Part shown: one piece after another, positions 10,388 through 57,128 of the stretch
Numbering within the stretch: position 1 is the first letter of the stretch
How the letters are laid out: every line of letters starts with the position of its first letter
NCBI GenBank assembly: GCA_040285745.1
Contig: JAUFOR010000001.1
Location: 1 to 64,000 of the forward strand
From: Barthelona sp. PCE
Lineage: Eukaryota
DNA: 64,000 nucleotides
Direction: 5' to 3'
Translations under genes and position numbers: made by a program
Notes under the pieces: model-generated
Databases searched by the model: none
What the model was told of the DNA's origin: nothing
Seen by the model: the letters and a program-made list of their open reading frames with translations, nothing else

Positions 10388-10690
10388 TGAAAGGCAATTT
10401 TTTTAAAAAAACAGAATCTTATTTTTTGAAGGTTTTAGATTACAGTGACTATTCACATTAAGTGAATAAGACTATTTTTCATAATTTATTCATGAATCAA
10501 ATTTTTTGTTTATCATGAACCGGTATTGAATTTCAAATAGTTTTTATGCTGAAATTGGTAGGAAACCGCGAAAAAGCAGACATTCCAGCTTATTAGTGTT
10601 GAAAAGCAAACAGAATCGAAAAGTATCAAAGAATTTGATTCACAATTTTATACCCTTATCGTCTAACTAAAGGTCTACTTTTTGTTTGAA

Positions 10691-23054: not shown

Positions 23055-23088
23055 TGTATAGGTTGTTATATATAAATCACCTTCTATT

Positions 23089-26000
23089 ATGTCTTTAGTT
23101 CCTGTAGTTGCAACGGGGCGCAAGGCAGACCGAATCATAAAGTCGCTGATCGTGTCAGCAGGTGATGAATCACCTGTTGTTCGTGATTCAATTATCCAAG
23201 CAATTCGCTGTCTAGGAACTGAAAGTCCTGCATTATGCATCACGGCCATTATCAACTTCCTCCAAACAGAACGAAAGGTTAGTGAATTAGCAGAAATGAC
23301 TATGTTTCATTCTATTAAAGCTATTTTGGAGGATTATTCAGGTGAACCTGAGAAGTTACCGTTCACAAACGAGATGATAGAGCCGATTGTCATCTTTACA
23401 ATTTACGAAATGACCAGTTCTAAGGATATTAAGGCAAATTTTCAGGGTAGTTGTTCAGAATGTATCGTTACTTTGGCTAATTTCTTCCCTAGAGTCGTTA
23501 TCAAATGTTTATGTGAACGCTTTGAAGTTGGAAAAATTCCACACTACTTTTTAGTGTTCACTATTGCTAAACTGGCTGAGCATATACCTGACGTTTTTAT
23601 TTCTAACTCTGCCACGATCCTTGCACGATTGCTCCCCGTCCTTGGACAAGTGCGTCAAGAAAACTATAAGTACTGCTTCGCAGCAGCCATCAACTCGATT
23701 GCTATTGCTTATTTGTCTTTGGATAACGAACCAAGTGAGACTCCTCTCGCCGCATCTTTTGATCTCATCATCAACTGGCTGAACGTGCGCCAGGCAGAGG
23801 TCCAAATTGTGTGTTGCCAGGCTGTGAGTCGCTTGATTAAGTTGGCCCCGTCCGAAAACCGTGATGTCATGGTCCAGGCTGCGCTCCCCAAGTTCATCTC
23901 TCTTGCTAAGAAGATGAAGGGCGCCAAACTAACTGCGGGTATCATTGACGCTCTCAGTATTTTGTTGGAAGTGACCAAGCATTCCGATTTTGTCAATATG
24001 AAGCTCGTTGAACTTGTGCCCCTGCTGCTTGATCTTGAGCACAACGCTCTTTCACATATGTACTCGGATGCGTACTCTATCAAGCTCCAGAATGCAATTT
24101 TCCGTTGTTTCGAGCACCTTTCGAGCGTACATTTTACAGTTGTTTTCAATAACTTAGTTACAATTCTCGAGCAGCAGATTCCTAACGTTACGAGTTACGC
24201 ACATGCTTCTGCACTTTCATGTATGCGTCAGCTGATCATGTCGAACGAGGAGGATTTCGACAATTATAAGTCCTCAGTTCTCTCAGTCCTTGTTGCTCTC
24301 AGTTCTTCACAGAACCCACACACGCTGCAGACTGTTGCACAGTGTTTCCTCCAGGTCGCTGACATGGGGTGGCTGGACGCTGACACTAGCGCAGCCAAGC
24401 GTCTCATTTCATTCATTGTTCGTCGCTGCAGTGAGAAGCGCAACCGTGACCTGAGACAGACTTGCCTCAGCTGTCTGGACCTCATGGTAAACATAGTTAA
24501 CTTAGATGGTGTGCTTATTCCAACGCTCATGAGTATGTTCAATATGCGCGAGTATTCCCCTGTTATATTCCCCATTGTCAAGACGCTAGTTAGTATTTTC
24601 GATAGGATTTGTGCTGACGGCAATCCTGTTGAAATCGACTTTGATGTTCAGCAGACACCCGCTGCTTTGTACATCATTGGTCGTCTTTTGGTGCACATTG
24701 CTGCCCCATCGTTTGATTTCTGCTTGCCTGAGAAGGAGGTCGAGACATTCGTCCAACTGCTAATGTATTTGTTAAAGTTTGTTGATGAGGAAATCGCGGA
24801 GCTCTTCACAAAGGCGTTCCCGTCAATCAATAAGGCAATCAGCCTATACGGAGACAAGCCAAAGAAGTTGCGCAACATTGCACTGAAGCTGTTTGATCAG
24901 CTGATCAGCACACTCGCAATTGAAGATCTTAACAAACTGCGCCTCTCTCTTGAGCTCTGTCTTGAGGCCATTCCATGGGACTGGAACTGTAGGGAGATCA
25001 TTTTTTCTCTGCTAGGTCTCATTTTAAGATGTTATTCGTCAACATCAACAGTTAAAATGTGTTTAGTTGCGTATGTCATGAAGATCGGTATGGATGTCGA
25101 GAATGAACGCGTTGCATTTGCTAAACTCATCGGTCTCATGGCCGAAATCCACATTGACCTCATCATTGAGTTCCTCATCAAACAACAGCACGATGCTAGG
25201 CGTCGGGAAAAGTCAGGATTCTTTGGCTCAAAGACCGTTTATGACGAAAACATCTTGCATATGGTGTACTCAGCTTGCTCGGGTCTTTTTAAGTTTTGTC
25301 CCATCGATGTGAGCGCCCCTCGTTTGGATTTCCTTATTGAGAAGCTCAGTGAATTCTGGAATATCTTTATCACAGACTACCCAATCTCAAAGAATCTGAA
25401 ATTCGCCATAATTACCACTGTAGAATCTATGGTCAACTCCGTTTGCAATGCCGGAACACCTCGTCAGCTGAAGAAACGCTCGTTCCTCGTTGACATGCTC
25501 AACTTCTTTTCAAAGGATCTCACAGAGGTGCAACTTCCTACTCTAATCGGAGCATACTCGGCCCTCATCACACTTCCTCCTGTGGTTCTTGTCCAGGATT
25601 TAAATAACATCTTTAGGGTTTTGCTTCCAAAGCTTCCACTCAATGTCAGTGATCCTAAACTGTTGGAGAGTATCACGAAATTCTTCAAAGGTCTTATTTC
25701 AAGTAACTCCACCTCTGAGTTTCTGCTCACTCTCTATAATGAATTGGCAAACTTTTTGTTCGACTCCCAATCGCAACTCGCTGTTGTTCTCATCAAGGAA
25801 CTGTTAACTATCTTCCTGGAGTTGGCAACAGCTGATAAGCTCACAGTGTTTAGTCTGCTCCCCACAATCATGTCGGTCTTAGTCTGCTTCATCCACCAGC
25901 CGAGAATCGAAAACAGCGCTGTTGAGATACTTGACTGCATCCTGCTTCTTCTCAAGATCAATGAGAAGGTATGCAAGGATAACGACTCCTTCAGTATGGC

Positions 26001-31949: not shown

Positions 31950-33728
31950 TTACAATAACATTAGCATATCACATTCACAAAGGAAGTCTCGAGTATTTAT
32001 CGTTCTTTGATCTATCATATAACCGGTGAAAGTATCATTCCAGTAAATTATATCCATTGTTGTAGAAAAATTGTTCAGCCTTGAGCAACGAACCATAATC
32101 TGTGATTCAACTGCGTGGAATTCATGGCACTCCATGTCTGGCATGTCATAGTACTTCTTATCACCGTTTTCATCGAAAATACAAGCAGCTTTACCAATAC
32201 AAATCGCACCCGGCCCAAAAAAATATGGTACATCGGTTGATGTGTGCATGTGGCATAAATAATGGGTGTCATAGTCTTCAGTGTCACTGTTGTATCGTAC
32301 ATAATAAAAAATTCCTTCCATAGCTACTATAATTATTGCTTCTCCTCCATTGTTATCAAAAGGGTTTAACTGAACTATACAGGTGATCGAATCCCCATAA
32401 TATTTGGTGAGAACTTTCACAACACCGCCTTCAACCGGATCAACCGCAATAAAAGTTATTTCTTCGCCAGAATATATCCACACACTGGTTTTGTTGATTT
32501 TTACCCAATCGTAATACATGGAAGTCGTAATTACCTCTCCATTAACGATGAACTCACACCCTTCTTCCAATTTACGACGTTGAACAACAACATATTCATT
32601 GAACAGCGGAGGATAGTATTCTTCACCACCTAGCAATGCTGGGCTCGTTCCACACTTATCATTTTCAATGAAGAGGTTGTAAAAATCGCCACTCAATGTA
32701 ACGCTTGCTGTCTTCCATTGTTTCGCCTTTGTGCAAAAGTATTGTGCCACGTTTCTGCTCATTTCTGACGATACCACAACCATGGTGCAGTGATAAAAGT
32801 TCCAAATAACTGTGTTTGTACAGATAGGAGTCGTACAGGGTTCTGTTTTTAGCATTTCTGAAGCTTTGAAACTAAAAAACCCGTTACCAATGTACTCTAG
32901 CAATGGAAACATCTTATCTTCATTCAAATCATAAAAAAAAAGCTTACCATCAAATGTAAAAGCAGTGCTAAAAGGCAGTGCACCTGCAGAACCTAATTTC
33001 ATATCGAATTCTTCATTAGCATGATATATGTTATCCGCTACACGTACAATGATGTCTTTACGCTCCAACACCAAATCATCCTCCTCAAACACGAAACAAT
33101 TCGATCCGGGAGTCAAATCATATGCTACAAATGTACGATTCGCCAAAAAATGACTCTTATCAACACGAGGAACGTTATCTGACAAATCTAAGCTCGCAAT
33201 GATCGTCAAACTGCTCTTCATGAAATATAATAGTTCACCATTGTGAACAAATAAGTCGCACAAAAACACACCGCCAATTTGAGTTATTTCTCCTGAATAA
33301 ATATCCAATATGTCATATCTATTGGTCCAATACCTCTTGTTTATGAGCCTTCCTTCTCTTAAAATATGCTTTGGTCCTATGCATGATATTTCTTCAACAA
33401 TGCGAAACTCACCTTCACTAAAAGCCAAGAATTCAAAATCTACATTCAAGAAATCAGTCTGTTCAATGTCATGGTATGATCTAAATCGGTATATTTCGTT
33501 TGAATTTAGCATAGTAACCTGAATTTTGGTTGTATCTTTGAAAATTGTATATTGACTTTCAGCAATTGGAGAAAATGCTGGTGGTGGAACTTTTATCCCT
33601 AAACCTGTTTTAGCAAGCCTTTTGAAGCTATGCCCATTCAACTCATCTGTCTTGCTTTGTACAACCAAAATATCCCCAAAGTGTATGAAAGTGAAGTCCT
33701 CTGTGTGCTTTACTGTGGCCCTCGGCAT
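31950..33728 (-). CDS. Probable divergent family X protein, 592 aa
   Basis: Starts MPRAT; contains KMFPLLE; ends INTRDFLCECDM. Confidence 0.7.
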   Translation of the reverse strand: MPRATVKHTEDFTFIHFGDILVVQSKTDELNGHSFKRLAKTGLGIKVPPPAFSPIAESQYTIFKDTTKIQVTMLNSNEIYRFRSYHDIEQTDFLNVDFEFLAFSEGEFRIVEEISCIGPKHILREGRLINKRYWTNRYDILDIYSGEITQIGGVFLCDLFVHNGELLYFMKSSLTIIASLDLSDNVPRVDKSHFLANRTFVAYDLTPGSNCFVFEEDDLVLERKDIIVRVADNIYHANEEFDMKLGSAGALPFSTAFTFDGKLFFYDLNEDKMFPLLEYIGNGFFSFKASEMLKTEPCTTPICTNTVIWNFYHCTMVVVSSEMSRNVAQYFCTKAKQWKTASVTLSGDFYNLFIENDKCGTSPALLGGEEYYPPLFNEYVVVQRRKLEEGCEFIVNGEVITTSMYYDWVKINKTSVWIYSGEEITFIAVDPVEGGVVKVLTKYYGDSITCIVQLNPFDNNGGEAIIIVAMEGIFYYVRYNSDTEDYDTHYLCHMHTSTDVPYFFGPGAICIGKAACIFDENGDKKYYDMPDMECHEFHAVESQIMVRCSRLNNFSTTMDIIYWNDTFTGYMIDQRTINTRDFLCECDMLMLL

Positions 33729-33958: not shown

Positions 33959-36139
33959 TTAATGGTGTGAAGTACAGATAGAAAGTCCTTCGGGTAGAGC
34001 GTTACCACAAATCTTACATTTGCACATCTGCTCAACAAGTCCATCATGGAAGCTGATCTCTCCGCACTCTGCCTTATAGTACTCCTTCTCCTTTTCCTTC
34101 AGACGCTTGACATCAGCTGACTGTGTATCGAGCGTCCTCTTGAACTGCTCCTGCTCGGCCTTTCTCTTCTGTATAAGTCTCTCGCGTTCTTCAGCCAACT
34201 CTTGCTCAATGCGAATACGTTCTTCACGTTCCTCTTTGAGAACGCGTTCTTTCTCAGTCAAGCGGATCATTTCAATCTCCTCCTTCTGCTTACGAAGTTC
34301 TTCATTAATGCGTTGGGCCTCTTCACGGAGACGAGCATCTCTATCAACACCCTCATCTTTCAGTAGAAAGACGGCATCTGGATCTATATCGCAACCCTTA
34401 GGCATCTGTTTTGCTGGATGGCGAACCTGGTAGTCAAGCGCACGACGCAAATTCGCTCTCATCTGATCTTGCTTCTCCTTCTCACGCTGTTTAATCTCGT
34501 TCGCAATTCGTGTATCTTCTTCGAGTTCCTTTAATGATTCTTCAATCTCTCTCGCGCGATCGGCCTTCTTTTTACGCTCAGCCTCGTCACGCATGTATCT
34601 CATCTCATCAGCAATGCTCTTGGCCTCCTTACGGCGTCTCTCTACATCGGCCTTGCTGCCGTCATCCTTTGTAATAGCCCACTCGTCTGGATTGATGCTG
34701 AATCCAACAATAACACCATCACCGCGCTCACGTTTCTCTTGCAATTGCTTCTCAAGCGCACTACGTTGGGCGGATTGACGTTTCCTCAGTTCCTTCGCCC
34801 AATCTTCCTGCTCCCTCTTCAAATCTTCCTCGATACGCATGCGTTCTTCACGCTCTGCCGCTAGGGTTTCTTCCAAGCGTTGTTTTCTGTTTGCCTTGCT
34901 CTCTTGAAGACGTTCGTATTCGTTCTTATACATCTCTGTGGGGGCAACTTCAGGTGTGGGAGGGCGACGATCAAACACATACATGCCGTCGTACTTATCG
35001 TCTAATCGGCGAGGTGTGACGGTTCGACTGTGACGCACATTTGCCAGCTTGATGTTAGCTTCCTGTAGTCTGCGTGCCTCATCACGAATCTTCGCCTGTT
35101 TCAAACGCTCCTCCTCTTCGTAGCGTTTAGCGTTCAACAAAACTTCCTCAGAGTACATAGCATCTTCTTGGCGCTCCTTAACGATCTTTTCCTTCTTGTT
35201 GCGGGAAGAACGAGCGCGCTCCTTACAGATCTTACAAACATCCTCTACTGGGAAGTCCTCTGGACGACGACTCTTTGCTGTACCGGTTTTAACACCCAAA
35301 ACAGCAAGGTCATCATGATCAACAATGTCGTCACGGATCACAGGATCGACGTAGCGCAAGGGAGCTTCATCCTTAATTGTGACCTTCGGCTTCATTGTAG
35401 GTTTAGGGTTGGGGGGTGACTGCACTTTTGTTCTTCTGCTGGACTTTGATTTGGGTCGAGTGTTGGGCTCGTTAATCTTGAAAGTTTCGCGTAAACGGGT
35501 GCCGTTGGGCAGCTTAGAAACATGATATCCTTTAATGGAAGAGTGAAGGGCCTCACGGGGACGGTGATTCTTGAGTGCAGGGGCAAAGCCAACCTTTGCG
35601 ACTCTGTTGCTGAAGCTAAGCTTCACAATGCCCTTAATCATAAGACCAACTGAAGCACCAGTTGCGGCATGTTGACCAAAAACGTTGAAAATAGTAGTAA
35701 GAACATCAGAGCAAACACTGGAGCCAACACCAGCACGGTGAGAGATGACAGAGTAGTTGACGTCCACAACACGACCGGTAATGCGCTTCTTAGGAGCTCT
35801 CAGACCATGAGTGCTTAAAAATGAAGAATTAAACTGAAAACGTGGGATGAAATCCTCCTTGGTGGCAAAACCCACATCACTCGTAATCTTTTCAAAACAA
35901 ATTGTACCAAAGCGACCAAGTTTAACACCCTAAATATTAGATGACTGTAATAGAAGTTGCTAATTATCAATTATCCCGCGTGAGAAAGAATGCAAAGCAA
36001 CTATACGCCTGCATACGATGTGAAGTGATGTATTGGACTCAATAAACTGTACAAGGGATGAGAAAACTTTACCTACTCCAGTAACATCGAGATTTACCAA
36101 TGGATGTTCGGCACATGCACGAAATAAGCTTTTTGACAT
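33959..36139 (-). CDS. CCDC81-like protein (HU-like N-terminal domains plus long coiled coil), ~697 aa, 2 exons (36139-36017, 35929-33959)
   Basis: Spliced N-terminus gives GVKLGRFGTI and VNYSVIS...GIVKL segments resembling the CCDC81 HU domains; E/R/K-rich coiled coil follows. Confidence 0.65.
35930..36016 (-). other. Spliceosomal intron, 87 nt
   Basis: GTATGC...ATCTAATATTTAG, the same ends as the GRP94 intron; phase-0 in-frame join of a 41-codon first exon. Confidence 0.85.
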
Positions 36140-44852: not shown

Positions 44853-45485
44853 TTAATGAACGTAAAAGGCAGGTGAAACCGAGCACCTACCACGCGCATT
44901 TCCCAAAACTAAGAACTTGTGTGTCTGACCAAGATTAGTATTGAACTCAAATATTAGAAAAGCTACACAGAGTAGTATTGCAATTGAAATTAGAAGATCG
45001 GCTACGGGAACGATCCAGTCACCTGGTTGATCAAGGGGTACAATGTAAACTATATAATTCTTGATTGAAAAGCTAGTTGCGTAAACAGAAAGACAGAAAA
45101 GTACTATTATCACAACATAATACATATAAATAGCTCCAATGGGAATTGTCCTCAATTCAGCTGGAAGCTCTTCATATCGTTCTCTTCTCTGTTCAAGATT
45201 AAGCTCCTTCTCTTTCTCACCATCAAATCCCTCAATGGATACCTCATCAAAACTTCGGTCTGACAAACTTTCATAATTCTCCAAATCACTATAATCCAGT
45301 CGTACAATATCAAAACCATCCACATTTGGTATAAAAAGCTCTTCCATAGATGTTTCAACATTAATAATGGAGGCAGACTCCAAAGGTCTGAATGTGTGAG
45401 TATCTGTTACTTGTATGACTTCAGCACTTGTTAGCCCATCAAATGATCCGCCAGTCGAAAGAAAATCGTCAGTTCTATGAAACAT
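44853..45485 (-). CDS. Hypothetical two-TM membrane protein, 210 aa
   Basis: Acidic N-terminus and two hydrophobic helices. Confidence 0.65.
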   Translation of the reverse strand: MFHRTDDFLSTGGSFDGLTSAEVIQVTDTHTFRPLESASIINVETSMEELFIPNVDGFDIVRLDYSDLENYESLSDRSFDEVSIEGFDGEKEKELNLEQRRERYEELPAELRTIPIGAIYMYYVVIIVLFCLSVYATSFSIKNYIVYIVPLDQPGDWIVPVADLLISIAILLCVAFLIFEFNTNLGQTHKFLVLGNARGRCSVSPAFYVH

Positions 45486-46631
45486 TGATCATATTTGCTT
45501 AACACAGTTTCAGATATGGAAGGAAATTTGAAAACAATTACTTGTTCAGTATTTGCTTTGCAAAAATGCTATCTATGTGACCTGTTCCTCTTTTAGTTCC
45601 TTTGCAACACATAGAAAACACACTTCTTAGTTTCAGATATGAAAAAATCTTTGCTTCTCAATTCATTCGTTCTTTTATTTTTAAAAGCTTTGTAGAAGCA
45701 GCAGTGGCAGTAATAATGCTTTTAACCGTATATAAACGCACTTTACTCGAATACTGAAAAAACTCAAGTACGTTAGTTTTTATGGTATGTTTGTGGTTAA
45801 AGGGGGGAACCCTTATTCGTGCGACCAAAAAATTGAAGTTAAAGCAACTACAAGTATTGTTAAAGTAATTCAGTCCCATATATCACTTAGTATGCCTAGA
45901 GTTAGAAGAAATGAGGAGTCATTGGCCCCTAGGGCAGATGGAGGGCTTGTGGTTGCTGAGGGCAACTATATATCAGTTTTTTCTGATTTGCAGAATAGCA
46001 CACTCAAATCCATGACTGAGAGTGACTTTATTGCTATACTTGACAATTCAATCCTGCTAAACAACACAGATAGAACTAAATTCGGCTTTGAAGATGGATA
46101 CTATAACACAACAAGTTTTGGTGAAAGTTCTGCCACAAACTCACTTGATCTTTGTGTGTACGACAACCTCTACCGCAACGACTTCACGAAGTCGGAATTC
46201 TTTCTGCCTGCTGAATGCTATCAAGAGCTTTCATTCGATGTTATTTTCCTCAACAAAACCCATTGTATTGTCGAATTACAGGGAGTTTCTGGCTCGACAG
46301 CGATGCGGCCATGCCTGGTGAACGTTTCAACGAACAAACACCGTGCTTTTGATGATTATGTGATGATATCAAACAAATCGACTGTGCAGTCCGGTATTGT
46401 TCTTTTCCGTTCAAATGAGACAAAAAAACTGTGTCTGTACAAGCCCAGCCCAGAAGACACGGTGGATTGTCCGCTGATCAGAGAGATTCATGATGTTGAC
46501 CCTTTCGACTTGAAAATTTTCAACTGCTTGAATGCAAAGGTCAATTTGCTTGCTAAAATCGACAATTTACACATCAGAAGTGCGTTTCTGGTCGACGAAC
46601 ACGGTTTCGTGATTAATCTACTTAATATGTT

Positions 46632-46764
46632 GGTGACATACAGGCGCTAGCCTTCAGACTTTATACTTGAGGTAGTAAACAGCGGAGGGGGACGAAGCGA
46701 ACCGTCATGTGTAGTAGGTGTCCGTAGGACCCGATACGGTTTTTCTTACCTTTTTCAAAAAAAA
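46632..46764 (+). repeat. Split direct repeat A1 (133 bp)
   Basis: Identical to 52482-52614 (GGTGACATAC...TTTTTCAAAAAAAA). Confidence 0.97.
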
Positions 46765-46801
46765 TCTTACTTTAGTATTGCTGCGCAAGAAATTAATTGC
46801 A

Positions 46802-48298
46802 ATGACATACTTTAGAGCGGAAAGGCAAACGAAAGAACAAGTTGCGCGCGCTATCCAGCATAGATGCGAGACGTATATTGCGCGCCTGAGTGTCGTGGTT
46901 ATGGAGACCTTGTGCAAGGTCCACGAGGCGGATCCCGCCGGTAAAGCCCACTTGATTGAGGCTCTCCCGAGTTACGGGTGCGGCGAGTACGCCGACGTAA
47001 TGCTCTCACCGTGCGTGTTGAGCGAGGACTTCCGGGGGTGGTTACAAGCATTGGGCGAAGATGAAAGTCAACAAGGTGTTGACAAGGTCCTTCCAGCAAT
47101 TTCCTTTAGCCTAGAGAGGTTTAGGGAACTTGCAAATCTTTTTGGCATGCGCCCATCCAAGTCATTAGCCAAGAATATTGAGGAGTCGGACATTAGAGGA
47201 GTCCGGGAGATGATTAGAGCTGCCGAAAATCACTGGAAGGCAGCTCCGGCTCTCATAACGCAGGAACTGGATGCGTTCAGGGCAGCAAAGAGGGAGGCCG
47301 ACAAGATCGAGGGAATATCGGACGTCGACAAGAAACAGCTCATCAAGACGATTACGCAACAGGTAACGCATGCGAAGGAGCAGGCGCTGAACGAGACGCG
47401 GAAGCAGACAATGGCCGCGTGGGAAGAAGAACCATCCGATGACGAGACCGACACCCAGCACACGTCTTCGAACGCAGGAATGAACACCGCCATGCAGATC
47501 GCAAGGGACGCTACCGCTTTGGTGAGCGAGACGATGAAAGAGGCCAGGCAGAGTAGGATGAGAGCCACAACCTATAACGAACCTTTCGATGCGGGCATCC
47601 AACAAGACAAACTACTCAGGAAGGTCAAACACCAATGGCAAAGAGGTCTGACATACGATAAGTTTACTGCCGCCATGGACAAGTTCCTCGAGGCGGAGAT
47701 AAAGCGCAACCCCACGATCTTCGCTGGCGATATTGATCTCGGGCTCTGGAAAGCGGACGACGTCCTTCCGGACGCGTTTGTTGAGGAGGTGACGGACGAC
47801 CACAAGGATAATTGGTTCCGCGAGTGGCAAATTCGTCTGAGGGACTTCAAGACGATCTACGAGGACAAGGTCGGATCCCAGTATGAACACGAGTGGCAAA
47901 CCAAGCGTTTGTACTTGCTGATGGAAGCCGCAGCGGAAATGGCGTTGGGAGACACTCTCCTACTAATCGGCAAGCTGTATGAGGAACGGCCACACCTCAT
48001 CCCGACCTTCATCGCTGCCGTCTCTCCATATGGTCCCAGCCGGGCCAACAGGGCGTCAGGTATCTACAACGACGAACTCAACGTCGACCACGTGCCTGAC
48101 AACTGGGTTGACGAGAATCGCGTGAAGCAATTCCTCACTAAGACGCTGGGAGTCGGTAGCTCCGGCATCATGGTCGAGTTTGACCCCACCGCCACCAAGA
48201 AGGCGTTCAACCATTCCACGAGAGCCCCCAAGCGCACGCACCGTCCTAAGACGCAAAAGAAGAAACAAGCGTTTAGCGCCAAAGAGGAGGAGAAGTGA
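46802..48298 (+). CDS. Retrotransposon ORF1, putative gag-like protein (498 aa)
   Basis: First ATG just after A1; helical with a basic C-terminal tail. The gag call rests on position only; no CCHC knuckle seen. Confidence 0.7.
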   Translation: MTYFRAERQTKEQVARAIQHRCETYIARLSVVVMETLCKVHEADPAGKAHLIEALPSYGCGEYADVMLSPCVLSEDFRGWLQALGEDESQQGVDKVLPAISFSLERFRELANLFGMRPSKSLAKNIEESDIRGVREMIRAAENHWKAAPALITQELDAFRAAKREADKIEGISDVDKKQLIKTITQQVTHAKEQALNETRKQTMAAWEEEPSDDETDTQHTSSNAGMNTAMQIARDATALVSETMKEARQSRMRATTYNEPFDAGIQQDKLLRKVKHQWQRGLTYDKFTAAMDKFLEAEIKRNPTIFAGDIDLGLWKADDVLPDAFVEEVTDDHKDNWFREWQIRLRDFKTIYEDKVGSQYEHEWQTKRLYLLMEAAAEMALGDTLLLIGKLYEERPHLIPTFIAAVSPYGPSRANRASGIYNDELNVDHVPDNWVDENRVKQFLTKTLGVGSSGIMVEFDPTATKKAFNHSTRAPKRTHRPKTQKKKQAFSAKEEEK

Positions 48299-48642
48299 AA
48301 TCGTTCGTCTCCCCCGCGCGCGATAGTAAATATCTATCCGACAAGGGCGTGGGAGACGCAAATGATCCCAATGCGGTCACAGCGCTCGCGGACAGGGTCG
48401 GCGAGCTCTCCATCGAGAACGTCAAATTGAAGAAGGAGATCAAGAGCCTCAAGAAGGAAATCCCTAAGAAGCAACTCAAAGCCGCGAAGATGGAACTTCG
48501 CGCAGCTACCAAACTCGTGGAGCTCGAAGACAAAAGACTAGAAGCCATCAAAGCTCGGGAAAGGAGCACACAGAAAACAAAAGCACCTGAGGACGTTAAA
48601 CGGGATAAGCCCCGTAAGGGAGAAAGCACCAACAGCTACTAG
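48295..48642 (+). CDS. Retrotransposon ORF2, small coiled-coil protein (115 codons, GTG start or reached by recoding)
   Basis: K/E-rich heptads (LSIENVKLKKEIKSLKKE); bridges ORF1 and ORF3 in a different frame; GTGA overlap with the ORF1 stop. Confidence 0.6.
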   Translation: MKSFVSPARDSKYLSDKGVGDANDPNAVTALADRVGELSIENVKLKKEIKSLKKEIPKKQLKAAKMELRAATKLVELEDKRLEAIKARERSTQKTKAPEDVKRDKPRKGESTNSY

Positions 48643-48652
48643 CGTGCAGAAG

Positions 48653-51600
48653 ATGATCTCCAAGGAGATCAACAAACTCAAACACGAGGTTGTAGATGAG
48701 CGGAATAACGTCCAAATCTCAAGAAATCCGAAGGAGGTAGTCGGCACAGACACCATGCAGTGGCCGGCCGCGGCGCCACCAGTAGCTCTGCTGAAGCACC
48801 TCCCACCCGACATCTTCCAGAAGGGCGGCCCAAGTCAACGAGTACTCAAAGAGGTGGTCCTAGGGGTTACCGGAACATGGGATATCCTCGGAACAGACCA
48901 GATGAAGATCAATTCAGCCGACACGCCCACGGAACAGTTCGTTAGGGACGCCGCGCGCGTCGCTGGCCTCAGCTGCGAAGAAATTGAGAAGACAGTCCGA
49001 CTGCTCGTGACTGAGGGCGTAACGCGCGACATGGTCGTTATCGAAGGAAAGAAGCCTCGCAGGCAGGAGCCAGTACGTCACTGGTACAAAGACGACGCTG
49101 TCGAATTGAACCTGGCCGTAACCGCGCTCAAAAGTAAGGACCTGATCAAAGAGGTCCCCATCGAAGAGATCGAGGACGAACGAAGGGCATTCATTTCCAT
49201 CGGCGCGGTCCCGAAGAATGCAGAACCGGACTCAAACAACATGTTCGCTCCGACGCAGAAGTTCGAATTTGACGTCACATCGCCGGACAACGAGCACAGG
49301 GTTATCGTCGACTGTACTAACACGAACTCTATGTTCGCCAACATTCCAATGGAACTCATCAAAACCCACTCTCTCGAGATTGTCATGGGTGGCAATCTCA
49401 TGTATTCCGTCGACGCAAAGGATGGTTTCACGCTCATTCCACTGGACGAAGAGCTACAAAAACTGTTCTCATTTACACACGAAGGTAAGCTTTATCAATG
49501 CACTAGAATGCCGTTCGGAGTTTCATTCGGCCCGGCCATCTTCGCCCGCATGATGAACCTGGCAACGACCGCAATGCGTGCGTTGGGATTCAACATCTGG
49601 AGCTACGTCGACGACGCTTTCGGATGGGAACGATCCCTCAGCAAAGCGAGGAACTCGATGATGCTGTTCATAATCATCGCGTCGAAACTTGGCATCAAGC
49701 TAAACTACAAAAAGTCCGTCAGTCCTTCGTACAAATTGGACATCATCGGCTACACGCTGAGCACCGACGACCAGTCTGACGGCGGCCGGCTAGTCTCAAC
49801 AATTAGACCGTCGGACAAGAACATCAGAAAGATCAGAGAGATGGCTCGCGTAATGCGAAATAGAATCGACACAGCAGAACAAATCCCTGTCAGGGACATC
49901 ATGAAGCTCGATGGCAAACTTGTATCATTTGCCAACGCCTCGACGATTCTTCAGCGGGTTCACCTACAGCTACAAGCAGTACTGAAGGATCTCGACGCCC
50001 AATACGATAACGCGATATTTGACTCGAGCAGGAACAAGGGCCTACGCCTTCTCCTACCTCTTCCACTAGCCGACGCACTCACGAGCATCGTTGAATGTAA
50101 CTTTGAACCGAAGACGCTGAGCTGCGGTAGAGCTAAGGTAACATTACTGAGCGACGCCATGAAGGACCAGAAACATATAGGCATTGGAGCGAAGGCATAC
50201 CCAGACGACGACCAAGAGCTCTCGTTCGAACTTCTCCACAGGATGGGAGTGAACGAGCAAGGAGCAAGAAGGATGTTGACACTTCTCGACGATCTGCCAG
50301 AACAGGAAAGAGTAGACATCGAGCAGAACACTGTCGCAACAATCGCGGAGCAGGAGATGGTACCGATCGTCGAGCTACTCAAGACTAAGGGCAGACAGCT
50401 GAGGAACACCGAAGTCGTCTGGTATTGCGACAACACGAACGTATGCGCCGCTGTCGCGAAGGGCTACAGCAAAAACAAGGTCCTCAACAAGGGGGCCCGC
50501 ATAGTGATGGAACTGTGCGAAATGTGGGACGTGATCGTCACACCAATCTACATCAACTCAGAACAGAATTATCTTCCAGACAGCATCTCAAGAGGAGCAT
50601 CGTCGGAGTCGTGGACCAACTCTACGACATTCGTGCACGAGATTCTCCCAGCTAGGGTAATCGAGTTCAAGACATCCGTCGTCGCAAGCCTCTACGAACC
50701 TGGACACATCCCAGCACTGTACGTCCGCGGTTTCCAGCCCACAAAAGGAAAGTCCAGGAGATCAACGAAAGCCGCACATGTGACAAGACAATGTCTCGGA
50801 CAAGACCTTATCTCTCTAGGCGAGTATGACCTCAAACGGAATGCGCTCAAGGTCGACAATGTTGCGAACGGGACTGCACACTGTACAGGTAAGCTCAAAA
50901 TCGTCGAAGGATTCGATGACACAAGATACACCGTCCCTCTATCGAATATGGCGATCATCACGAGAGACAACGAAAGAATCGAGGCAACAGTTCCGACTTA
51001 CTCCGCAGCCACAAGCTTAGAGATAGTCATTCTCAAAGTGTGCAGAACCGGCGCGGAAGTAGATGTGATCCTCCCCGGACCACTCCCGTCTTGCCCATTG
51101 TGGGCTACAATCGCACAAAAGACCATCCCATTAAGTGATGGATCCATAAAGATAAGAGTTACGAGAGAAAAGGTTCTCGGCGGCGAACCCGAGGACTACA
51201 AGCCCGCTGGAGCACGCACTCAGAACCCGGTACAGGTACGGGGCAAATCACTATCTCTGGCAGATCTGTTCGCCATCCCACCGTCGATGGACTACGACGA
51301 AGTGCTCGAACTCTTTCTGAAAAAAGGAGCGCACCAACCAACGAGGAACATGCTACATCGCTTCGGGAACTTCGTTCAAAAGGTGCACAGCACAGAAATA
51401 GTGGACGTCGCATGCCCAGGAAACGAAAAGAGACTTGAAGAGCTGATAATCGAGTTCAGATTCAGACTCGAACAGGAAACAAAATCGAAGAGGCGTGCGA
51501 ACGGCGACACCACCGAAGTATGGAGGTACACCTCAGATACGATTAACAGTTACATTTTCCACCTGCGTAAAGGACTGCTGGTTCTGAAAATGTTCATCAC

Positions 51601-52465
51601 CGACAAGAAATCTCTCCTCACGACCGAAGAACTCGAGCAACTCGTCCAGCTTAGGGCGGCAGTAATCAGATGCACACTGAGCGAGAGCTCAGAAACACAG
51701 AAATTCGCCATCAGCACGTCAGCAATCAGATTCCTGGCGGCAAGAGAGATTGAAGAGCTTAAAGCACTGGTCCAGGAAGGTACCACGAAGAAGAAGGCCC
51801 TTCAGAAGCTAAACAAAGTAAGAAGAAGAATTGCTATGATGTCATCAATGTACAACTTAGGATGCAGAGCGGCGTCTCTTGCCGCAGTCAAGACCCACCA
51901 AATTGAAGTCTCAAAATCCGGCGATGTCACGGTAACGCTGGACAAAGTGAAGAACCAACAGGGTCGACCAACCAGCTACATGATCCCCAGAAACGTATGG
52001 GAGCTGGGCACACTGCACGACTATTTAAACGACGCTGTGCAAAGAGCAAAAGAAGGAGGTAAAGAGTTTATTTTCTCGAACGGCGGAGAAGCCCAGAGCG
52101 TCTCGAATGCATTAAACACCATGTTCCGAGATTACAACGAGAAAATCAAGCAATCTGACCACAAGAATGCAAGCAAATTCAGAGTATTCAAAATGACAGC
52201 TCATGGCCTTAGAGCCGGCAGGGCAAAAGAGATAGCACAACATCCAGATGCGACTGTACGAGTATCAGCGCAAGGAATGGGTCTCTGGAAGGATGTGAAG
52301 GCGATGAACCTTGACTATCTCACGAAACCACTATTGACGTTTGAGGAACGAGAGGTGTTGAGTCCGATGGAATTGGAAGGATGGGTTTTAGGCCACTTCC
52401 CGGACGAAACACCCTCTACACGTGAAGGCGAGCCTTCCCACGTGAGCGTTCCCCGACGTCAATAA
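48653..52465 (+). CDS. Retrotransposon ORF3: RT-RNase H-(degenerate MTase-like)-tyrosine recombinase polyprotein (1270 aa from first ATG)
   Basis: RT: SVDAKDGF, RMPFG, YVDD (49604-49615). DIRS-type RNase H: LLSDA, AEQE, YCDN, NYLPDSISR. YR: LGCR, KVKN, HGLR, GLW, DYL. Confidence 0.93.
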   Translation: MISKEINKLKHEVVDERNNVQISRNPKEVVGTDTMQWPAAAPPVALLKHLPPDIFQKGGPSQRVLKEVVLGVTGTWDILGTDQMKINSADTPTEQFVRDAARVAGLSCEEIEKTVRLLVTEGVTRDMVVIEGKKPRRQEPVRHWYKDDAVELNLAVTALKSKDLIKEVPIEEIEDERRAFISIGAVPKNAEPDSNNMFAPTQKFEFDVTSPDNEHRVIVDCTNTNSMFANIPMELIKTHSLEIVMGGNLMYSVDAKDGFTLIPLDEELQKLFSFTHEGKLYQCTRMPFGVSFGPAIFARMMNLATTAMRALGFNIWSYVDDAFGWERSLSKARNSMMLFIIIASKLGIKLNYKKSVSPSYKLDIIGYTLSTDDQSDGGRLVSTIRPSDKNIRKIREMARVMRNRIDTAEQIPVRDIMKLDGKLVSFANASTILQRVHLQLQAVLKDLDAQYDNAIFDSSRNKGLRLLLPLPLADALTSIVECNFEPKTLSCGRAKVTLLSDAMKDQKHIGIGAKAYPDDDQELSFELLHRMGVNEQGARRMLTLLDDLPEQERVDIEQNTVATIAEQEMVPIVELLKTKGRQLRNTEVVWYCDNTNVCAAVAKGYSKNKVLNKGARIVMELCEMWDVIVTPIYINSEQNYLPDSISRGASSESWTNSTTFVHEILPARVIEFKTSVVASLYEPGHIPALYVRGFQPTKGKSRRSTKAAHVTRQCLGQDLISLGEYDLKRNALKVDNVANGTAHCTGKLKIVEGFDDTRYTVPLSNMAIITRDNERIEATVPTYSAATSLEIVILKVCRTGAEVDVILPGPLPSCPLWATIAQKTIPLSDGSIKIRVTREKVLGGEPEDYKPAGARTQNPVQVRGKSLSLADLFAIPPSMDYDEVLELFLKKGAHQPTRNMLHRFGNFVQKVHSTEIVDVACPGNEKRLEELIIEFRFRLEQETKSKRRANGDTTEVWRYTSDTINSYIFHLRKGLLVLKMFITDKKSLLTTEELEQLVQLRAAVIRCTLSESSETQKFAISTSAIRFLAAREIEELKALVQEGTTKKKALQKLNKVRRRIAMMSSMYNLGCRAASLAAVKTHQIEVSKSGDVTVTLDKVKNQQGRPTSYMIPRNVWELGTLHDYLNDAVQRAKEGGKEFIFSNGGEAQSVSNALNTMFRDYNEKIKQSDHKNASKFRVFKMTAHGLRAGRAKEIAQHPDATVRVSAQGMGLWKDVKAMNLDYLTKPLLTFEEREVLSPMELEGWVLGHFPDETPSTREGEPSHVSVPRRQ

Positions 52466-52481
52466 ACCTACTTCAGTATAA
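52383..52481 (+). repeat. Split direct repeat B1 (99 bp), overlapping the end of ORF3
   Basis: Identical to 52616-52714; contains AATAAA overlapping the ORF3 stop. Confidence 0.97.
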
Positions 52482-52614
52482 GGTGACATACAGGCGCTAG
52501 CCTTCAGACTTTATACTTGAGGTAGTAAACAGCGGAGGGGGACGAAGCGAACCGTCATGTGTAGTAGGTGTCCGTAGGACCCGATACGGTTTTTCTTACC
52601 TTTTTCAAAAAAAA
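52482..52614 (+). repeat. Split direct repeat A2
   Basis: Identical to A1; followed by one extra A (52615). Confidence 0.97.
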
Positions 52615-52615
52615 A

Positions 52616-52714
52616 GGGTTTTAGGCCACTTCCCGGACGAAACACCCTCTACACGTGAAGGCGAGCCTTCCCACGTGAGCGTTCCCCGACGTCAATAAAC
52701 CTACTTCAGTATAA
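52616..52714 (+). repeat. Split direct repeat B2 (right end of element)
   Basis: Identical to B1. Confidence 0.97.
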
Positions 52715-54209
52715 TCCATTATTGAAGGAAGCCCGTCTTTCAAGCAATATAAAAGCATTTGTTCTTGAGAAACTGACCGATGAAACTCTTAAAATAACGT
52801 TTTTTATGGGTTCTCTGTTCAGGAAAAACGTTTTCAAAGGACATAGCATCGCAATTGAATTTGGCAAGTTTAGAAAAACAATGGGTATACTGCCCTGTAA
52901 CTTATTCTATTCGACTCCCACTGACATCGACTTGGAATCGTTGGATTTTGCTAACAAAACTGCTATCTATGGAGCAAAGAGTGAAAAAAGTGTACTTGGC
53001 CGCCTTTCCTTTCTGGATAGATCATGCACTTCTTTTTCTCTTTCACAGCATCCACAGCGCACACAGTACAACTCGTGCTTGACGTATTTTGATGATATTA
53101 CTATGGGACTCGTTTACTGTTATCTTGACAGAGATCTCATCATCTTGCAGCCCTTCAATCCTGACCTTAAAGACAGCGACTATAACATCTTGGTGAATGA
53201 ACTTAAAACACCCCATTTCAGGGATGGTCGTACCATTTTCTACGCAACTGTCTTTTGCCATGAAAATAAGCTCTGTCATTTGGAGCTTTGTTGTGGAGAG
53301 GATGGCGTGACTGTGCAGCCGCTGACCAGAGTCAGAGGTGAACTACTTGACTGGATGTATGGAAGATCATTGGTACTTGGTGCTGGTGGTGTGTATCTCG
53401 GTGAAGAGCTGATTGTTGACAACGAAGGTGCGGTTATAGAATGTCACAATGTCTGTGCTGCAGGAGAGAATACCCTTGTCGTGTCACTGCCCGAGAATGC
53501 CGTGTTTGTTAGATTTGATAGCGATGGAAGAATTGAAACCAGGATTAAAATCCCATCCGAGGGCGAAACGCATCGCCTTTGCCCGCACCATATGCGCGAA
53601 GACCATAACTTTCAATTATTTCAGGTTTCTGAAGGTTTCAACGATTTCAGCATTAAGTGTATTAATTGGGATACTGGGGTCATTAGTAACTCTGTTAGTG
53701 TTCCTTCGGAGGGATACTTCACATCTGGAAACAACATTGAATTTGCTTTTCAAAAAACAGAGTTCGAATTCGCTATGGACGGTGAGCTTACTTTTGAAGA
53801 CCGGAAAAGTAGGCTTAAGTTATCTGTAGAACATGACTACGGGCAGGATTGCACACAAATTTTTGAGTTTGATAACTTTGTGTGTTCTGTATCTACATTT
53901 CCTACATCATTTCATGCGAAAGATGAAAAAATTACTGTGACATATGATATGGCTCATTTTGTGTCCAAAGCGGACATTCGCCATCTCTACTTTGACGTCA
54001 GTGAATGCTGCAAGATGGTTAACGAGTGTAAATTTGGTGAATAATTATGCAGGTTTACTTAATTCACTGTAAATAATAAATTTTTGACTTTTTAACAGCT
54101 TTTGGTTAACGATACCCCTCACCTTGGCTATTTACGAAATGTAAAAGTTACTTTTATGCTAAGAATCTTTAAACTCCTTTCAAGTCAGTAGTACAGTCAA
54201 TTTATAAAG

Positions 54210-57128
54210 ATGACTGATTTAATGACTGATATTACCGTGGGCCTGACAACCGAAGTCGTCAACAATAGACTGGACAAATATGGTCCTAACGACTTACCTC
54301 CTGCTCCCACCTCATCATTCTTTAGACTACTTTTAGAGCAATTCAATGATAGGATGTCCCTATTTCTGTTATTTAGTTGTTTACTTAACGTTATCCTGAT
54401 TTTTTGGGATGATGAACCCATTACGTGGCGCTCTGTTACCGAACCTGGTGTCGTTCTACTCATCCTCGCTGCCAATGGCGTCATTGGTGTTCTTCAAGAT
54501 CTTAACGCTGAAAAAGCTGTTCTTTCACTAAAGCAATTTGAAGTGCCAATGTGTAAGGTGCTTCGAGACGATTCGTGGCACGTTGTGGAATCTGTACATC
54601 TTGTTCCTGGTGACGTTATCGAACTCACAGTAGGAGATATGGTTCCTGCTGATTGCGTTGTGCGAAGCTTCCCTTACAAGCAGCATCTTGAGGTTGTGCA
54701 GTCTGCATTTACAGGAGAAACAAACACCTTCTTCAAGGACGCATTCACCGGCACCGAATTCATAGAATCTGCCGAGGTGGACTTGAACAGTAAGACGATG
54801 GTCTTCAGTGGTACCCGCGTTGCCTCTGGCCGCGCAATCTGCACAGTAACCCACACTGGCCGTAACCGTGTGCTGGGTGGTATACAAGATGCCCTATTCG
54901 AGGATGACGGGAACGTTTCACCTCTTACAACGCAACTTGATGTATTTGGCGAGCAACTGTGGTGGATCATTGTTGTCATCTGCGCGCTTGTTTTTGTCAT
55001 TAACATTAAGAACTTCACTCTTCCTGAACACAGCAGTAAGGCCAAGGCAGCACTGTATTATTTCAAGACAGCCATTGCGCTCGCCGTTGCAGCCCTCCCA
55101 GAGGGCCTCCCCACGGTTTTGACGATCGTTACCGCGCTTGGATCACGCAGAATGGCGAAGAAAAGTATCATTGTGCGCCGTCAACGTGCTCTCGAAACTC
55201 TGGGCTGTGGAAGCGTTTTGTGTACAGACAAGACTCAGACAATGACGACAAACCGTATGGTTGCCCACACTGTGTGCTATCCAACGGACGAATACGAGGA
55301 GATCGAGGAGCATGCTGTGCAGCACAAAGGATTCCTTCCGTTTTCAGGAGCTTTCCCTGAAGAATTTAAGGGTATCACGAACTCCATCGCTTTGAAACTC
55401 ATCTGTGTTCTTTGCAACCACTCGAAGCTTGAAGAAAAACGCGAAGAAAACAACATTTCGGTTCGCTACTTCGGATCTCCCACAGAGGCTTCGCTCATGT
55501 GTCTCGGTGAGAAACTGGGCGTTTGCACCATCGGCCGCGAGGATACCTCCTGGGAAAGCGGCGCTCTCCGCGCCACGTACACCGAGCTGGTTAACCGTTA
55601 TGAGATTGAGCACCTTGAAGATTTCACACGTGAGCGTAAAATGATGACTATTGTCGTCCGCGACCGTCACACAGATCAGGTCTTCGCACTCACAAAGGGT
55701 TCTCCGTCCATCATCCGAGACACCTGCTCTTCTTTTATGAATCCATCAGAAAAACAGGGTTCATTCTATGACAAGAGAGATATCAGGCAGTTTGATACGT
55801 TCTTGCGCAACGCGGTTGGAGATGTTGAGCACAAAATGGCGCTCGAGCACGGCAGCCGCATTTTGGGATTCGCAATCAAGCCTCTCGCTGATAAGTACGA
55901 TTTGTCAACAATTGAAGAGAACATGACATACGTCGGTTTCGTGTGTATCCAAGACCCCCCTAAGGAGACAGTTAGACCAGCAATGGAGGATTGTAGAAAA
56001 GCAAACGTTCGCGTCATGATGATTACTGGCGACAGCCTGTCCACTGCACTGTCTGTTGCTCTGGAGACAAGTCTCATTGACAAAGAGTACGACCATCACA
56101 CCGTGCTGAGCGGCGCTGAATGGAATGCTCTATCAGATGAGGACAAGGTCGATCATATCAAGACACTTCGCGTCCTAGCACTGGCAACACCGATGCACAA
56201 GCGCGAGGTTGTTGAGTTATTGCAGGCCGAGGGCGAGGTTGTCGTCATGGTTGGCGACGGTGTCAACGATGCTGCTGCAATCAAGCGAGCAGACGTTGGC
56301 GTGGCTATGTGTGACGGGTCGGACGTCACGAAGCAAGCAAGTGATATGATTTTGCTTAACAACGACTTCGCAACGCTCACAAACGCAGCCATCAGGGAAG
56401 GGCGTATAATGTTCTTCAACTGTCTTGCCTTTTTGAAGTTTTTGATTTCCAGCAATTTCGGAGAAGTTGCTTGCATTTTTTTCGCCACGCTGCTCAATCT
56501 ACCATCGTTTCTCAGTCCCGTGCAGTTGCTATGGGTCAACCTTGTCACCGACGGACTGCCCGCAACAGCCCTCTCTTTCAACAAGCCTGATAAGAATATC
56601 ATGAAGCAGAAGCCAAGGAAACGCAACGAAAAACTGGTTACAACCGAGCTCTTTATTAGAATGGTTATTGTGGGCATATACATCGGCGTTGCAACTGTTT
56701 TTGCGTACTGTTTTGAATTCGTATACGCCAAAAACGGGCCCGGTATGTCATGGAGCGAGTTCTTGATGTTCTGCAAGGAGATGGTGCTCTCACACGAATT
56801 ATTAACTCCTGAACTGCAGTATTCGATGGCCAAGGCATCAACACACGCCCTCAGCGTACTTGTTGTTATTGAGATGTTTAATGCATGGAACTGTCTGTCA
56901 TTTTCTGAGAGCATATTCACCTTCTCATTCAACACGAACTGGCTTGTCCTGTTTGCCACGCTGCTCTCACTGCTTCAACACTACATCATTCTTGTAGTCC
57001 CGTTCTTGCGTGAAGTCTTCGGAGTTGTGCCCTACAACGTGTACGACTGGATTTTTATTATTGCAATTAGCTTGCCTGTTGTGCTCGTTGAAGAAGTGTA
57101 CAAGTACATCTATCGCCGCTGTAAATAA
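54210..57128 (+). CDS. P2A-type (SERCA-like) Ca2+-transporting ATPase
   Basis: LVPGD, FTGET, AALPEGLP, CTDKTQT, MITGD, GDGVND, SSNFGE, QLLWVNLVTDGLPATAL, IEMFNA. Confidence 0.93.
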   Translation: MTDLMTDITVGLTTEVVNNRLDKYGPNDLPPAPTSSFFRLLLEQFNDRMSLFLLFSCLLNVILIFWDDEPITWRSVTEPGVVLLILAANGVIGVLQDLNAEKAVLSLKQFEVPMCKVLRDDSWHVVESVHLVPGDVIELTVGDMVPADCVVRSFPYKQHLEVVQSAFTGETNTFFKDAFTGTEFIESAEVDLNSKTMVFSGTRVASGRAICTVTHTGRNRVLGGIQDALFEDDGNVSPLTTQLDVFGEQLWWIIVVICALVFVINIKNFTLPEHSSKAKAALYYFKTAIALAVAALPEGLPTVLTIVTALGSRRMAKKSIIVRRQRALETLGCGSVLCTDKTQTMTTNRMVAHTVCYPTDEYEEIEEHAVQHKGFLPFSGAFPEEFKGITNSIALKLICVLCNHSKLEEKREENNISVRYFGSPTEASLMCLGEKLGVCTIGREDTSWESGALRATYTELVNRYEIEHLEDFTRERKMMTIVVRDRHTDQVFALTKGSPSIIRDTCSSFMNPSEKQGSFYDKRDIRQFDTFLRNAVGDVEHKMALEHGSRILGFAIKPLADKYDLSTIEENMTYVGFVCIQDPPKETVRPAMEDCRKANVRVMMITGDSLSTALSVALETSLIDKEYDHHTVLSGAEWNALSDEDKVDHIKTLRVLALATPMHKREVVELLQAEGEVVVMVGDGVNDAAAIKRADVGVAMCDGSDVTKQASDMILLNNDFATLTNAAIREGRIMFFNCLAFLKFLISSNFGEVACIFFATLLNLPSFLSPVQLLWVNLVTDGLPATALSFNKPDKNIMKQKPRKRNEKLVTTELFIRMVIVGIYIGVATVFAYCFEFVYAKNGPGMSWSEFLMFCKEMVLSHELLTPELQYSMAKASTHALSVLVVIEMFNAWNCLSFSESIFTFSFNTNWLVLFATLLSLLQHYIILVVPFLREVFGVVPYNVYDWIFIIAISLPVVLVEEVYKYIYRRCK

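Follow-up and report, generated by a model that had tools for sequence, protein, structure and literature searches.

The DNA analyzed in this study (the window) is a stretch of 64,000 nucleotides, positions 1 to 64,000 of contig JAUFOR010000001.1 (assembly GCA_040285745.1), from Barthelona sp. PCE, a small anaerobic flagellate of the barthelonid protists. Positions 46632-52714 (+) of the window are occupied by a tyrosine recombinase (YR) retrotransposon of 6083 bp, in the order A1-[open reading frames (ORFs)]-B1A2B2. We believe that it is very probably a recent insertion of a young family with split direct repeats and a Ngaro-like layout, belonging to a divergent barthelonid lineage in which reverse transcriptase (RT), RNase H (RH), a domain called here X and the YR lie in one frame. 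The anatomy of the element, its family of copies and the fact that it entered a host ORF with neither a duplication nor a change of frame were shown. Within the known class of YR retrotransposons, it stands on a very divergent branch with the additional domain X. The features are collected in Table 1.

The A repeat at 46632-46764 and its second copy at 52482-52614 were equal at 133 of 133 bases, and the two B repeats (52383-52481 and 52616-52714) at 99 of 99, the terminal A run having eight bases in A1 and nine in A2. An earlier note on this DNA, made from the letters alone, had described both pairs as base-exact with this difference in the A run, which was confirmed. At the B1/A2 boundary, the repeats abut with zero bases in common. 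No other direct-repeat family longer than 25 nt was found between 45000 and 54500 among the 20 largest listed, and the match of the A and B repeats is therefore far beyond chance. Inverted terminal repeats and the ICR (internal complementary region), as known from DIRS1, were absent; the longest inverted pair in 45000-54500 was 24 nt and lay away from the termini. No solo A, B or AB was found at other sites of the window. The GC content of the coding DNA of the element was 51-54%, compared with 41% in the flanking ORFs.

Table 1. Window positions of the retrotransposon, its predicted signals and the host gene that it interrupts.
Feature	Positions	Strand	Remarks
Host gene 5' half	45787..46631	+	298 open codons to the junction
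A1 terminal repeat	46632..46764	+	133 bp, A8 at its end; same as A2
ORF1	46802..48298	+	498 aa, no internal stop; gag-like by position alone; basic C-terminus
Coiled-coil frame	48277..48642	+	121 codons; overlaps ORF1 by 22 nt in the -1 frame; bZIP-like, E 7e-5
Predicted RNA stem-loop	48301..48365	+	begins 2 nt past the ORF1 stop; candidate recoding/reinitiation signal
Pol-YR ORF	48542..52465	+	1307 codons from stop to stop; first ATG 48653; no stops
GGG run	48618..48620	+	one G more than in sisters; +1 frameshift in the window copy
RT core	49364..49759	+	YVDD at 49604; Pfam RVT_1, E 1.3e-14
RNase H	50138..50600	+	acidic motifs at about 50150, 50345, 50426 and 50576
Domain X	50601..51280	+	about 230 aa between RNase H and YR; site of the adenine methyltransferase in DIRS/PAT
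Tyrosine recombinase	51300..52330	+	R 51866, K 51950, H-x-x-R 52202/52211, W 52286, Y 52316
B1 repeat	52383..52481	+	99 bp; AATAAA at 52461
Predicted RNA hairpin	52468..52525	+	17 bp over the B1/A2 join, just 3' of the internal AATAAA
A2 repeat	52482..52615	+	A9 at its end
B2 terminal repeat	52616..52714	+	99 bp; AATAAA at 52694
Host gene 3' half	52715..54044	+	open for 442 codons after the junction, in the phase of the 5' half

When the flanks were joined without the element, a single ORF of 724 aa was obtained. In a set of 11 proteins, the paralogous ORF 66-1919 was collinear with both halves of the host gene, aligning at residues 154-252/27-128 (E 0.009) and 3-329/161-492 (E 7e-6). Because the halves are open, in phase and collinear with a paralog, we concluded that a host gene was split by the element, the target being left unduplicated and the frame preserved overall. 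No target-site duplication was found at this one site, and the flanks carry no common terminal sequence and rejoin in frame, as is the case for the order DIRS. The interruption of the host gene, and the sharing of one frame by RT-RH and YR, go beyond the earlier note.

The last six bases 5' of the crossover had nothing in common with the B end. From -20 to -7, the left flank agreed with the B end, aligned in register, at 11 of 14 positions; when scored by best segment, as good a match was obtained at 123 of 115,784 positions of the host (0.1%), and when the last 20, 25 and 14 nt were compared the equally scoring shares were 0.7%, 4% and 5%, respectively. The right flank showed no similarity to the start of A (70% of positions scored equally) and no significant similarity to the inverted B end (p 0.11). 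The likeness of the left flank to the B end, seen post hoc at one site, may be taken only as a lead for mimicry of a binding arm. For DIRS1-like elements, integration is stated to require 3 bp of identity between the target and the junction (PMC3266345), whereas the present element shares no base at the crossover.

Four orphan ORFs of the window (66-1919, 17487-19487, 31950-33728 and 45787-54044) were 590-720 aa long and alike in make-up. No Pfam matches were found in them, 66-1919 being outside that scan, and similarity to the interrupted gene was detectable in 66-1919 only. They are possibly a fast-diverging host family that tolerates insertions.

RT, RNase H, domain X of about 230 aa and YR are all in the single frame of the pol-YR ORF, whose stop codon lies within B1. 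In the predicted RT-RH-X model (pLDDT 52), the RT fold matched that of MLV RT (Z 12.9, rmsd 3.9, 223 residues aligned) and the RNase H fold that of RNase H1 4e19 (Z 9.8, rmsd 3.5, 121 aligned). The acidic motifs of RNase H were kept in five barthelonid proteins, and the YR residues R, K, HxxR, W and Y were invariant across four families. Cre, Xer and Int took the top Foldseek ranks for the RH-X-YR model (best E 1.8e-3, none at or below 0.001). As in the order DIRS, the element thus carries RT and RNase H together with a YR of the form R-K-HxxR-(H/W)-Y. Neither a DDE integrase nor a protease was matched in Pfam, and ORF1 and domain X received no assignment there; further searches, including PHROGs, likewise gave no meaningful family match for ORF1. 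Within the RNase H coding region, 50452-50540 holds the strongest local predicted RNA structure of the element (z about -4.2).

Among 8000 scored candidates, the long ORF had a single match, a 98% identical NCBI model from Barthelona sp. PCE, and the 90% cluster of this model comprised five gene models, all from the same organism and located on contigs of three different lengths; the copy number given here rests on these gene models. P0004, with zero substitutions relative to the window, is probably the window copy's own model. The other four models differed from the window by 5, 7, 0 and 0 substitutions in ORF1 (497 residues) and by 3, 2, 1 and 0 in pol, respectively, excluding stretches due to predicted introns, gene-model junctions and frameshifts. 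Because the copies differ by only 0-7 substitutions in ORF1 and 0-3 in pol, the family is young. The stretch from RH to YR was one aligned block in 5/5 models. The earlier call of a young YR retrotransposon of the order DIRS, its direct repeats being split, is thus borne out by the RT, RNase H and YR, the repeats, the missing duplication and the near-identical sisters. The P0005 gene model joins a sister copy to an ABC transporter, with the membrane-domain match starting at profile position 62; here a second insertion has probably hit a host gene or landed next to one. Similarly, the P0001 model starts with a COMM domain of the host.

When 1.84 billion representatives were searched, 5230 matches reached E ≤0.001, and the three best after the element's own family, as well as the sixth, were further PCE models. 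They represent three more PCE families (P0008/P0009/P0157/P0158; P0010; P0013), which are 20-38% identical and all have domain X with the YR downstream. The element RT showed <40% identity even to the other PCE families, and its identity to all further sequences was about 25-33%. P0091, a transcript product of Barthelona sp. PAP020, covers RT-RH and the start of X. A metagenome scan for relatives returned 154 pattern matches and 0 relatives, and a viral scan returned 2 relatives among 146, one contig being caulimovirus-like and the other Gypsy-like; both were used solely as outgroups. The caulimovirus-like contig (L001:1-8029), found via its RT, has a terminal overlap. In a word-index search, RT-RH gave 4 distant matches and the host 3' half matched only itself.

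The earlier note had called all ORFs intact. ORF1 and the long ORF are indeed free of stops, but a +1 frameshift relative to the sisters disrupts the N-terminus of pol. The coiled-coil frame is the N-terminal part of pol in the sister copies and reads straight into pol in 3/4 sister models (P0001, P0002, P0003), so the GGG run of the window is one base longer than in these three. P0005 has a different break, and in P0004 the gap is bridged by a predicted intron. One contig of sequencing run X2 (depth 2.8) had one base fewer at 48618. The extra G is either a true mutation or a polishing or assembly error. It would break the N-terminus of pol and would have no effect if pol starts at ATG 48653; outside these two cases, assembly error or internal start, the window copy may depend on its sisters for pol.

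ORF1 and pol overlap by 22 nt in -1 phase. The predicted stem-loop after ORF1 had a z of -3.3 (2/200 shuffles) and ranked third of 301 sliding windows, which is modest. We infer that pol is reached by recoding or reinitiation rather than by splicing. Splicing of a 32-nt GT..AG intron at 48295-48326 would instead yield one Gag-RT-RH-X-YR polyprotein, and this join is used by 5/5 public gene models. Three host introns were found in the window, at 3524-3571 (-), 14538-14635 (-) and 35930-36016 (-), the rest of it being nearly intron-free; all three have the form GTATG...CTAAY-N-TAG, with the branch point fixed beside the 3' splice site, a form reminiscent of Giardia and Trichomonas introns. The 32-nt candidate has neither end of this form, no acceptor of this form was found in the element, and the same predictor spans other frameshifts with invented introns (P0003-P0005). 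We therefore consider the spliced polyprotein improbable and retain recoding or reinitiation.

AATAAA is present in B1 and B2 only, and a transcript of full length therefore has to read through the first of these signals. The predicted hairpin over the B1/A2 join had a z of -4.2 (0/200 shuffles), compared with 0.25 in the A1 context, and was weak as DNA (z -1.8 and -0.8). Retroviral long terminal repeats (LTRs) offer an analogy for masking of an internal poly(A) site, and it is plausible that this hairpin could act in the same way. No Rfam match was found for the element.

Domain X was kept in the alignments of the four PCE families, and its start also in P0091. Since X sits exactly at the position of the adenine methyltransferase (MT), the element could derive from a PAT lineage in which the MT decayed into X and was then fused with the YR. 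MT loss from a PAT lineage has a precedent (PMC4157794), and the best profile-profile pairing joined the last 55 columns of X to the C-terminal half of MT, where the predicted strand-helix-strand-helix-hairpin order at the end of X would be compatible. Against this origin, the pairing was not significant (P 0.06, probability 0.9%), and a profile of 11 seed, then 62 MT domains matched 80 proteins, but on the barthelonid ones its match was confined to the tail of RNase H. The Dam-like motifs that follow RNase H in PAT, D-x-F-A and (N/F)PP, are absent from X, which is about 80 residues longer than MT; the catalytic triplet that retrotransposon DAMs keep, as given in an extract of bioRxiv 10.64898/2026.05.21.726589, is also absent. 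Because an active methyltransferase lacks support, the element is not PAT or DIRS1 by structure, and the part of the earlier call that named the PAT type is unlikely, the MT motifs being missing. Descent from PAT with a decayed MT is likewise unlikely in our view, without being negligible. Domain X had no match in PHROGs, a single chance match among PDB sequences (E 1.6) and scores of ≤0.84 with low recognition in Atlas; the fold search gave no assignment and scarcely probed X, both AlphaFold models having pLDDT <50 over most of it.

For the phylogeny, 158 proteins with an RT match were taken, of which 108 reach the end of RNase H and 94 were kept after removal of near-copies, models of ≥2000 aa and late-starting fragments. 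The four PCE families formed a clade with a support of 0.94 (FastTree), 98/90 (41 rows; 26 randomly chosen from the 65 MT-bearing rows) and 92/89 (30 rows, 14 drawn, two outgroups). P0091 and the protein P0058 joined this clade at 96/92 and 87/96, with a long-branch warning. The approximately unbiased (AU) test did not reject the five barthelonid sequences as a clade (p 0.55), which does not prove the clade. Against two LTR/pararetrovirus-type outgroups, RT-RH sat with the RTs of YR elements at 100/100.

The element could also be an ordinary long-branch Ngaro family, with fast host evolution behind its divergence and X a variable linker or family-specific accessory domain. As in Ngaro, B1A2B2 lies 3' of the YR, ORF1, RT/RH and YR follow in order on one strand, and no MT is detectable, which together fit the Ngaro definition in the extract of PMC4157794; the YR is reported in the RT-RH frame across all groups of fungal Ngaro (PMC3783388). 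In the 41-row tree, the MT-bearing rows were on one side (88/81) and the barthelonid clade on the other, mostly MT-less side, P0152, with a Dam domain, being counted among the non-MT rows. On the other hand, X is kept across families that are 20-38% identical and has the same start in a second barthelonid, and in the 30-row tree with outgroups the backbone is open and the barthelonid clade groups with no other sampled lineage. The trees hold no labelled Ngaro, PAT or VIPER rows, and the likeness to Ngaro is one of layout only. An ordinary Ngaro family is a real possibility, but we consider it less likely than not. The element is a young YR retrotransposon of the order DIRS, Ngaro-like in layout, and by the features tested it is not DIRS1-like, PAT or VIPER.

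In VIPER/TATE elements, the YR precedes RT/RH, whereas here it lies downstream. The A1..B1A2B2 layout is shared with the VIPER/TATE elements of kinetoplastids (PMC6681497) and is given for Ngaro, PAT and VIPER (PMC8547959, PMC4157794); the latter source describes all three with split direct repeats, Ngaro and VIPER without MT and PAT with it. The closest described picture is that of Cafeteria burkhardae Ngaro1-4, which are about 6 kb long and GC-rich, with four types and three ORFs (PMC8547959). Like Ngaro, the element is about 6 kb long with GC above that of its flanks, has the A1-[ORFs]-B1A2B2 layout, the order ORF1-RT/RH-YR and no recognisable MT, and occurs beside several unrelated families in one protist genome; a YR in the RT-RH frame is possible in Ngaro too, as in fungi. 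Unlike Ngaro, it has a conserved domain of about 230 aa between RH and YR, with the fusion present in 5/5 copies. PAT, TOC and kangaroo (PMC4157794) resemble it in their split direct repeats and in an additional domain right after RNase H, but the element has neither MT motifs nor a significant MT profile match, and its YR is in the pol frame. DIRS1-like elements (PMC3266345, PMC7192593) share RT/RH and YR, the absence of a target-site duplication and an internal copy of the end junction, and differ by having inverted terminal repeats with an ICR, in place of direct repeats, and an MT domain.

Because fungal Ngaro and Bodo saltans TATE, with two one-ORF copies (PMC6681497), show single-frame cases, the RT-YR fusion alone is not new. 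In SymbioDIRS, the YR is in a separate ORF (PMC5890265), and PAT-like elements typically have one ORF for DAM and another for the YR (bioRxiv 10.64898/2026.05.21.726589). The extracts of PMC2685390 and PMC12477816 added nothing on ORF fusion. The animal gene models P0034, P0082 and P0136 are fused RT-MT-YR but may be intron-bridged, and they were not weighed on the novelty of the fusion.

From the DIRS/Ngaro model we infer the following cycle. Transcription would start in A1, and the RNA would pass the AATAAA of B1, perhaps with its cleavage site hidden by the B1/A2 hairpin, to end near the AATAAA of B2. ORF1 would be translated from ATG 46802, and pol would be reached by a -1 shift or by reinitiation at the stem-loop, without splicing. 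RT would then copy the RNA, the internal B1A2 join serving as the template that restores both ends and yields a B-A junction. DIRS-1 cannot do without its internal copy of the junction, and the cDNA found for it is single-stranded and for the most part linear (PMC7192593). Finally, recombination by the YR would take place between the B-A junction and a host site similar to the B end over the presumed binding arm; identity at the crossover would be unnecessary.

A further-reaching proposal is that the barthelonid elements are a separate superfamily-level YR branch with an RT-RNase H-X-YR polyprotein, X being new or repurposed, with read-through at a B-A hairpin and with targets chosen by likeness to the B-end arm rather than by crossover identity. 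Taken as one joint claim, this is doubtful, and we put it forward only tentatively.

Several points weigh against our preferred account of a recent insertion from a divergent barthelonid lineage with a single-frame RT-RNase H-X-YR. The YR reaches only E 0.002 for Pfam Phage_integrase, under the curated cut-off, and the RH-X-YR fold model is poor (pLDDT 46). No slippery heptamer is present in the ORF1/pol overlap, and each of the two hairpins, like the target similarity, was noted post hoc in a single sequence and lacks covariation. In family 2, the fusion appears in only one of three YR-side models (P0158), P0008 stopping just short of the YR and P0157 being the YR alone, so the RT-YR fusion may not hold in every family; P0008, P0157 and P0158 appear to differ as by one base in a C run, which would reflect either a fault of the assembly or a genuine site of frameshifting ahead of the YR. 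P0010 and P0013 are single gene models in which predicted introns could be hidden. The repeat order was seen at one assembly locus, without a junction-spanning contig. In favour of our account, sequencing runs X1 and X2 gave 21 contigs that map to the element, 20 of them at ≥99%, but these reach its inner parts only, at a depth of 2.5-5.3, run X3 gave nothing and the flanks were uncovered; no contig of X1-X3 spans a junction, and no joints or loose ends were found. Since no read or contig examined spans the junctions, and sister models show small frameshifts typical of long-read assembly, an assembly artefact might underlie the order of the repeats, or the presence of the element here. We regard this as very improbable, as a misjoin would not yield the canonical A1..B1A2B2, base-exact abutting ends and a restored host frame collinear with a paralog.

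Elsewhere in the window, at 23062-23306, a MutS-family ORF (-) lies head to head with a HEAT-repeat ORF (+); counted from their first ATGs, the two share about 160 nt, but the real starts may lie further inside. At 8458-10402 (-), a same-strand ORF pair overlaps by about 160 nt (9755-9918), as a frameshift, an intron or two genes.

The Barthelona genome has 10.2 Mb, is 4.46% repetitive and is apparently the smallest of a free-living eukaryote according to its describers (PMC11316075). In the extracts of that paper, the text does not contain "retro", and the text of the supplement gave no match. The literature search found no report of YR retrotransposons in metamonads; one Carpediemonas-related paper that was found concerns DAMs. 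The guess that the element comes from a protist lineage without described elements of this kind therefore holds within the reach of this search.

These results extend YR retrotransposons to Metamonada. At least four families persist in a genome of 10.2 Mb, one of them young enough for the interrupted host gene to be still open. A point of note for annotation is that, in the public gene models, the ORFs of the element, and at times host genes, are fused via introns that depart from the host splice consensus. RNA termination, pol expression and target choice have been little tested in elements with split direct repeats, and the present element gives three specific checkable signals for them. If the barthelonid elements were indeed a superfamily-level branch, their compact, near-identical copies in a cultured genome of this size would be a tractable system for the replication model of split-direct-repeat elements.

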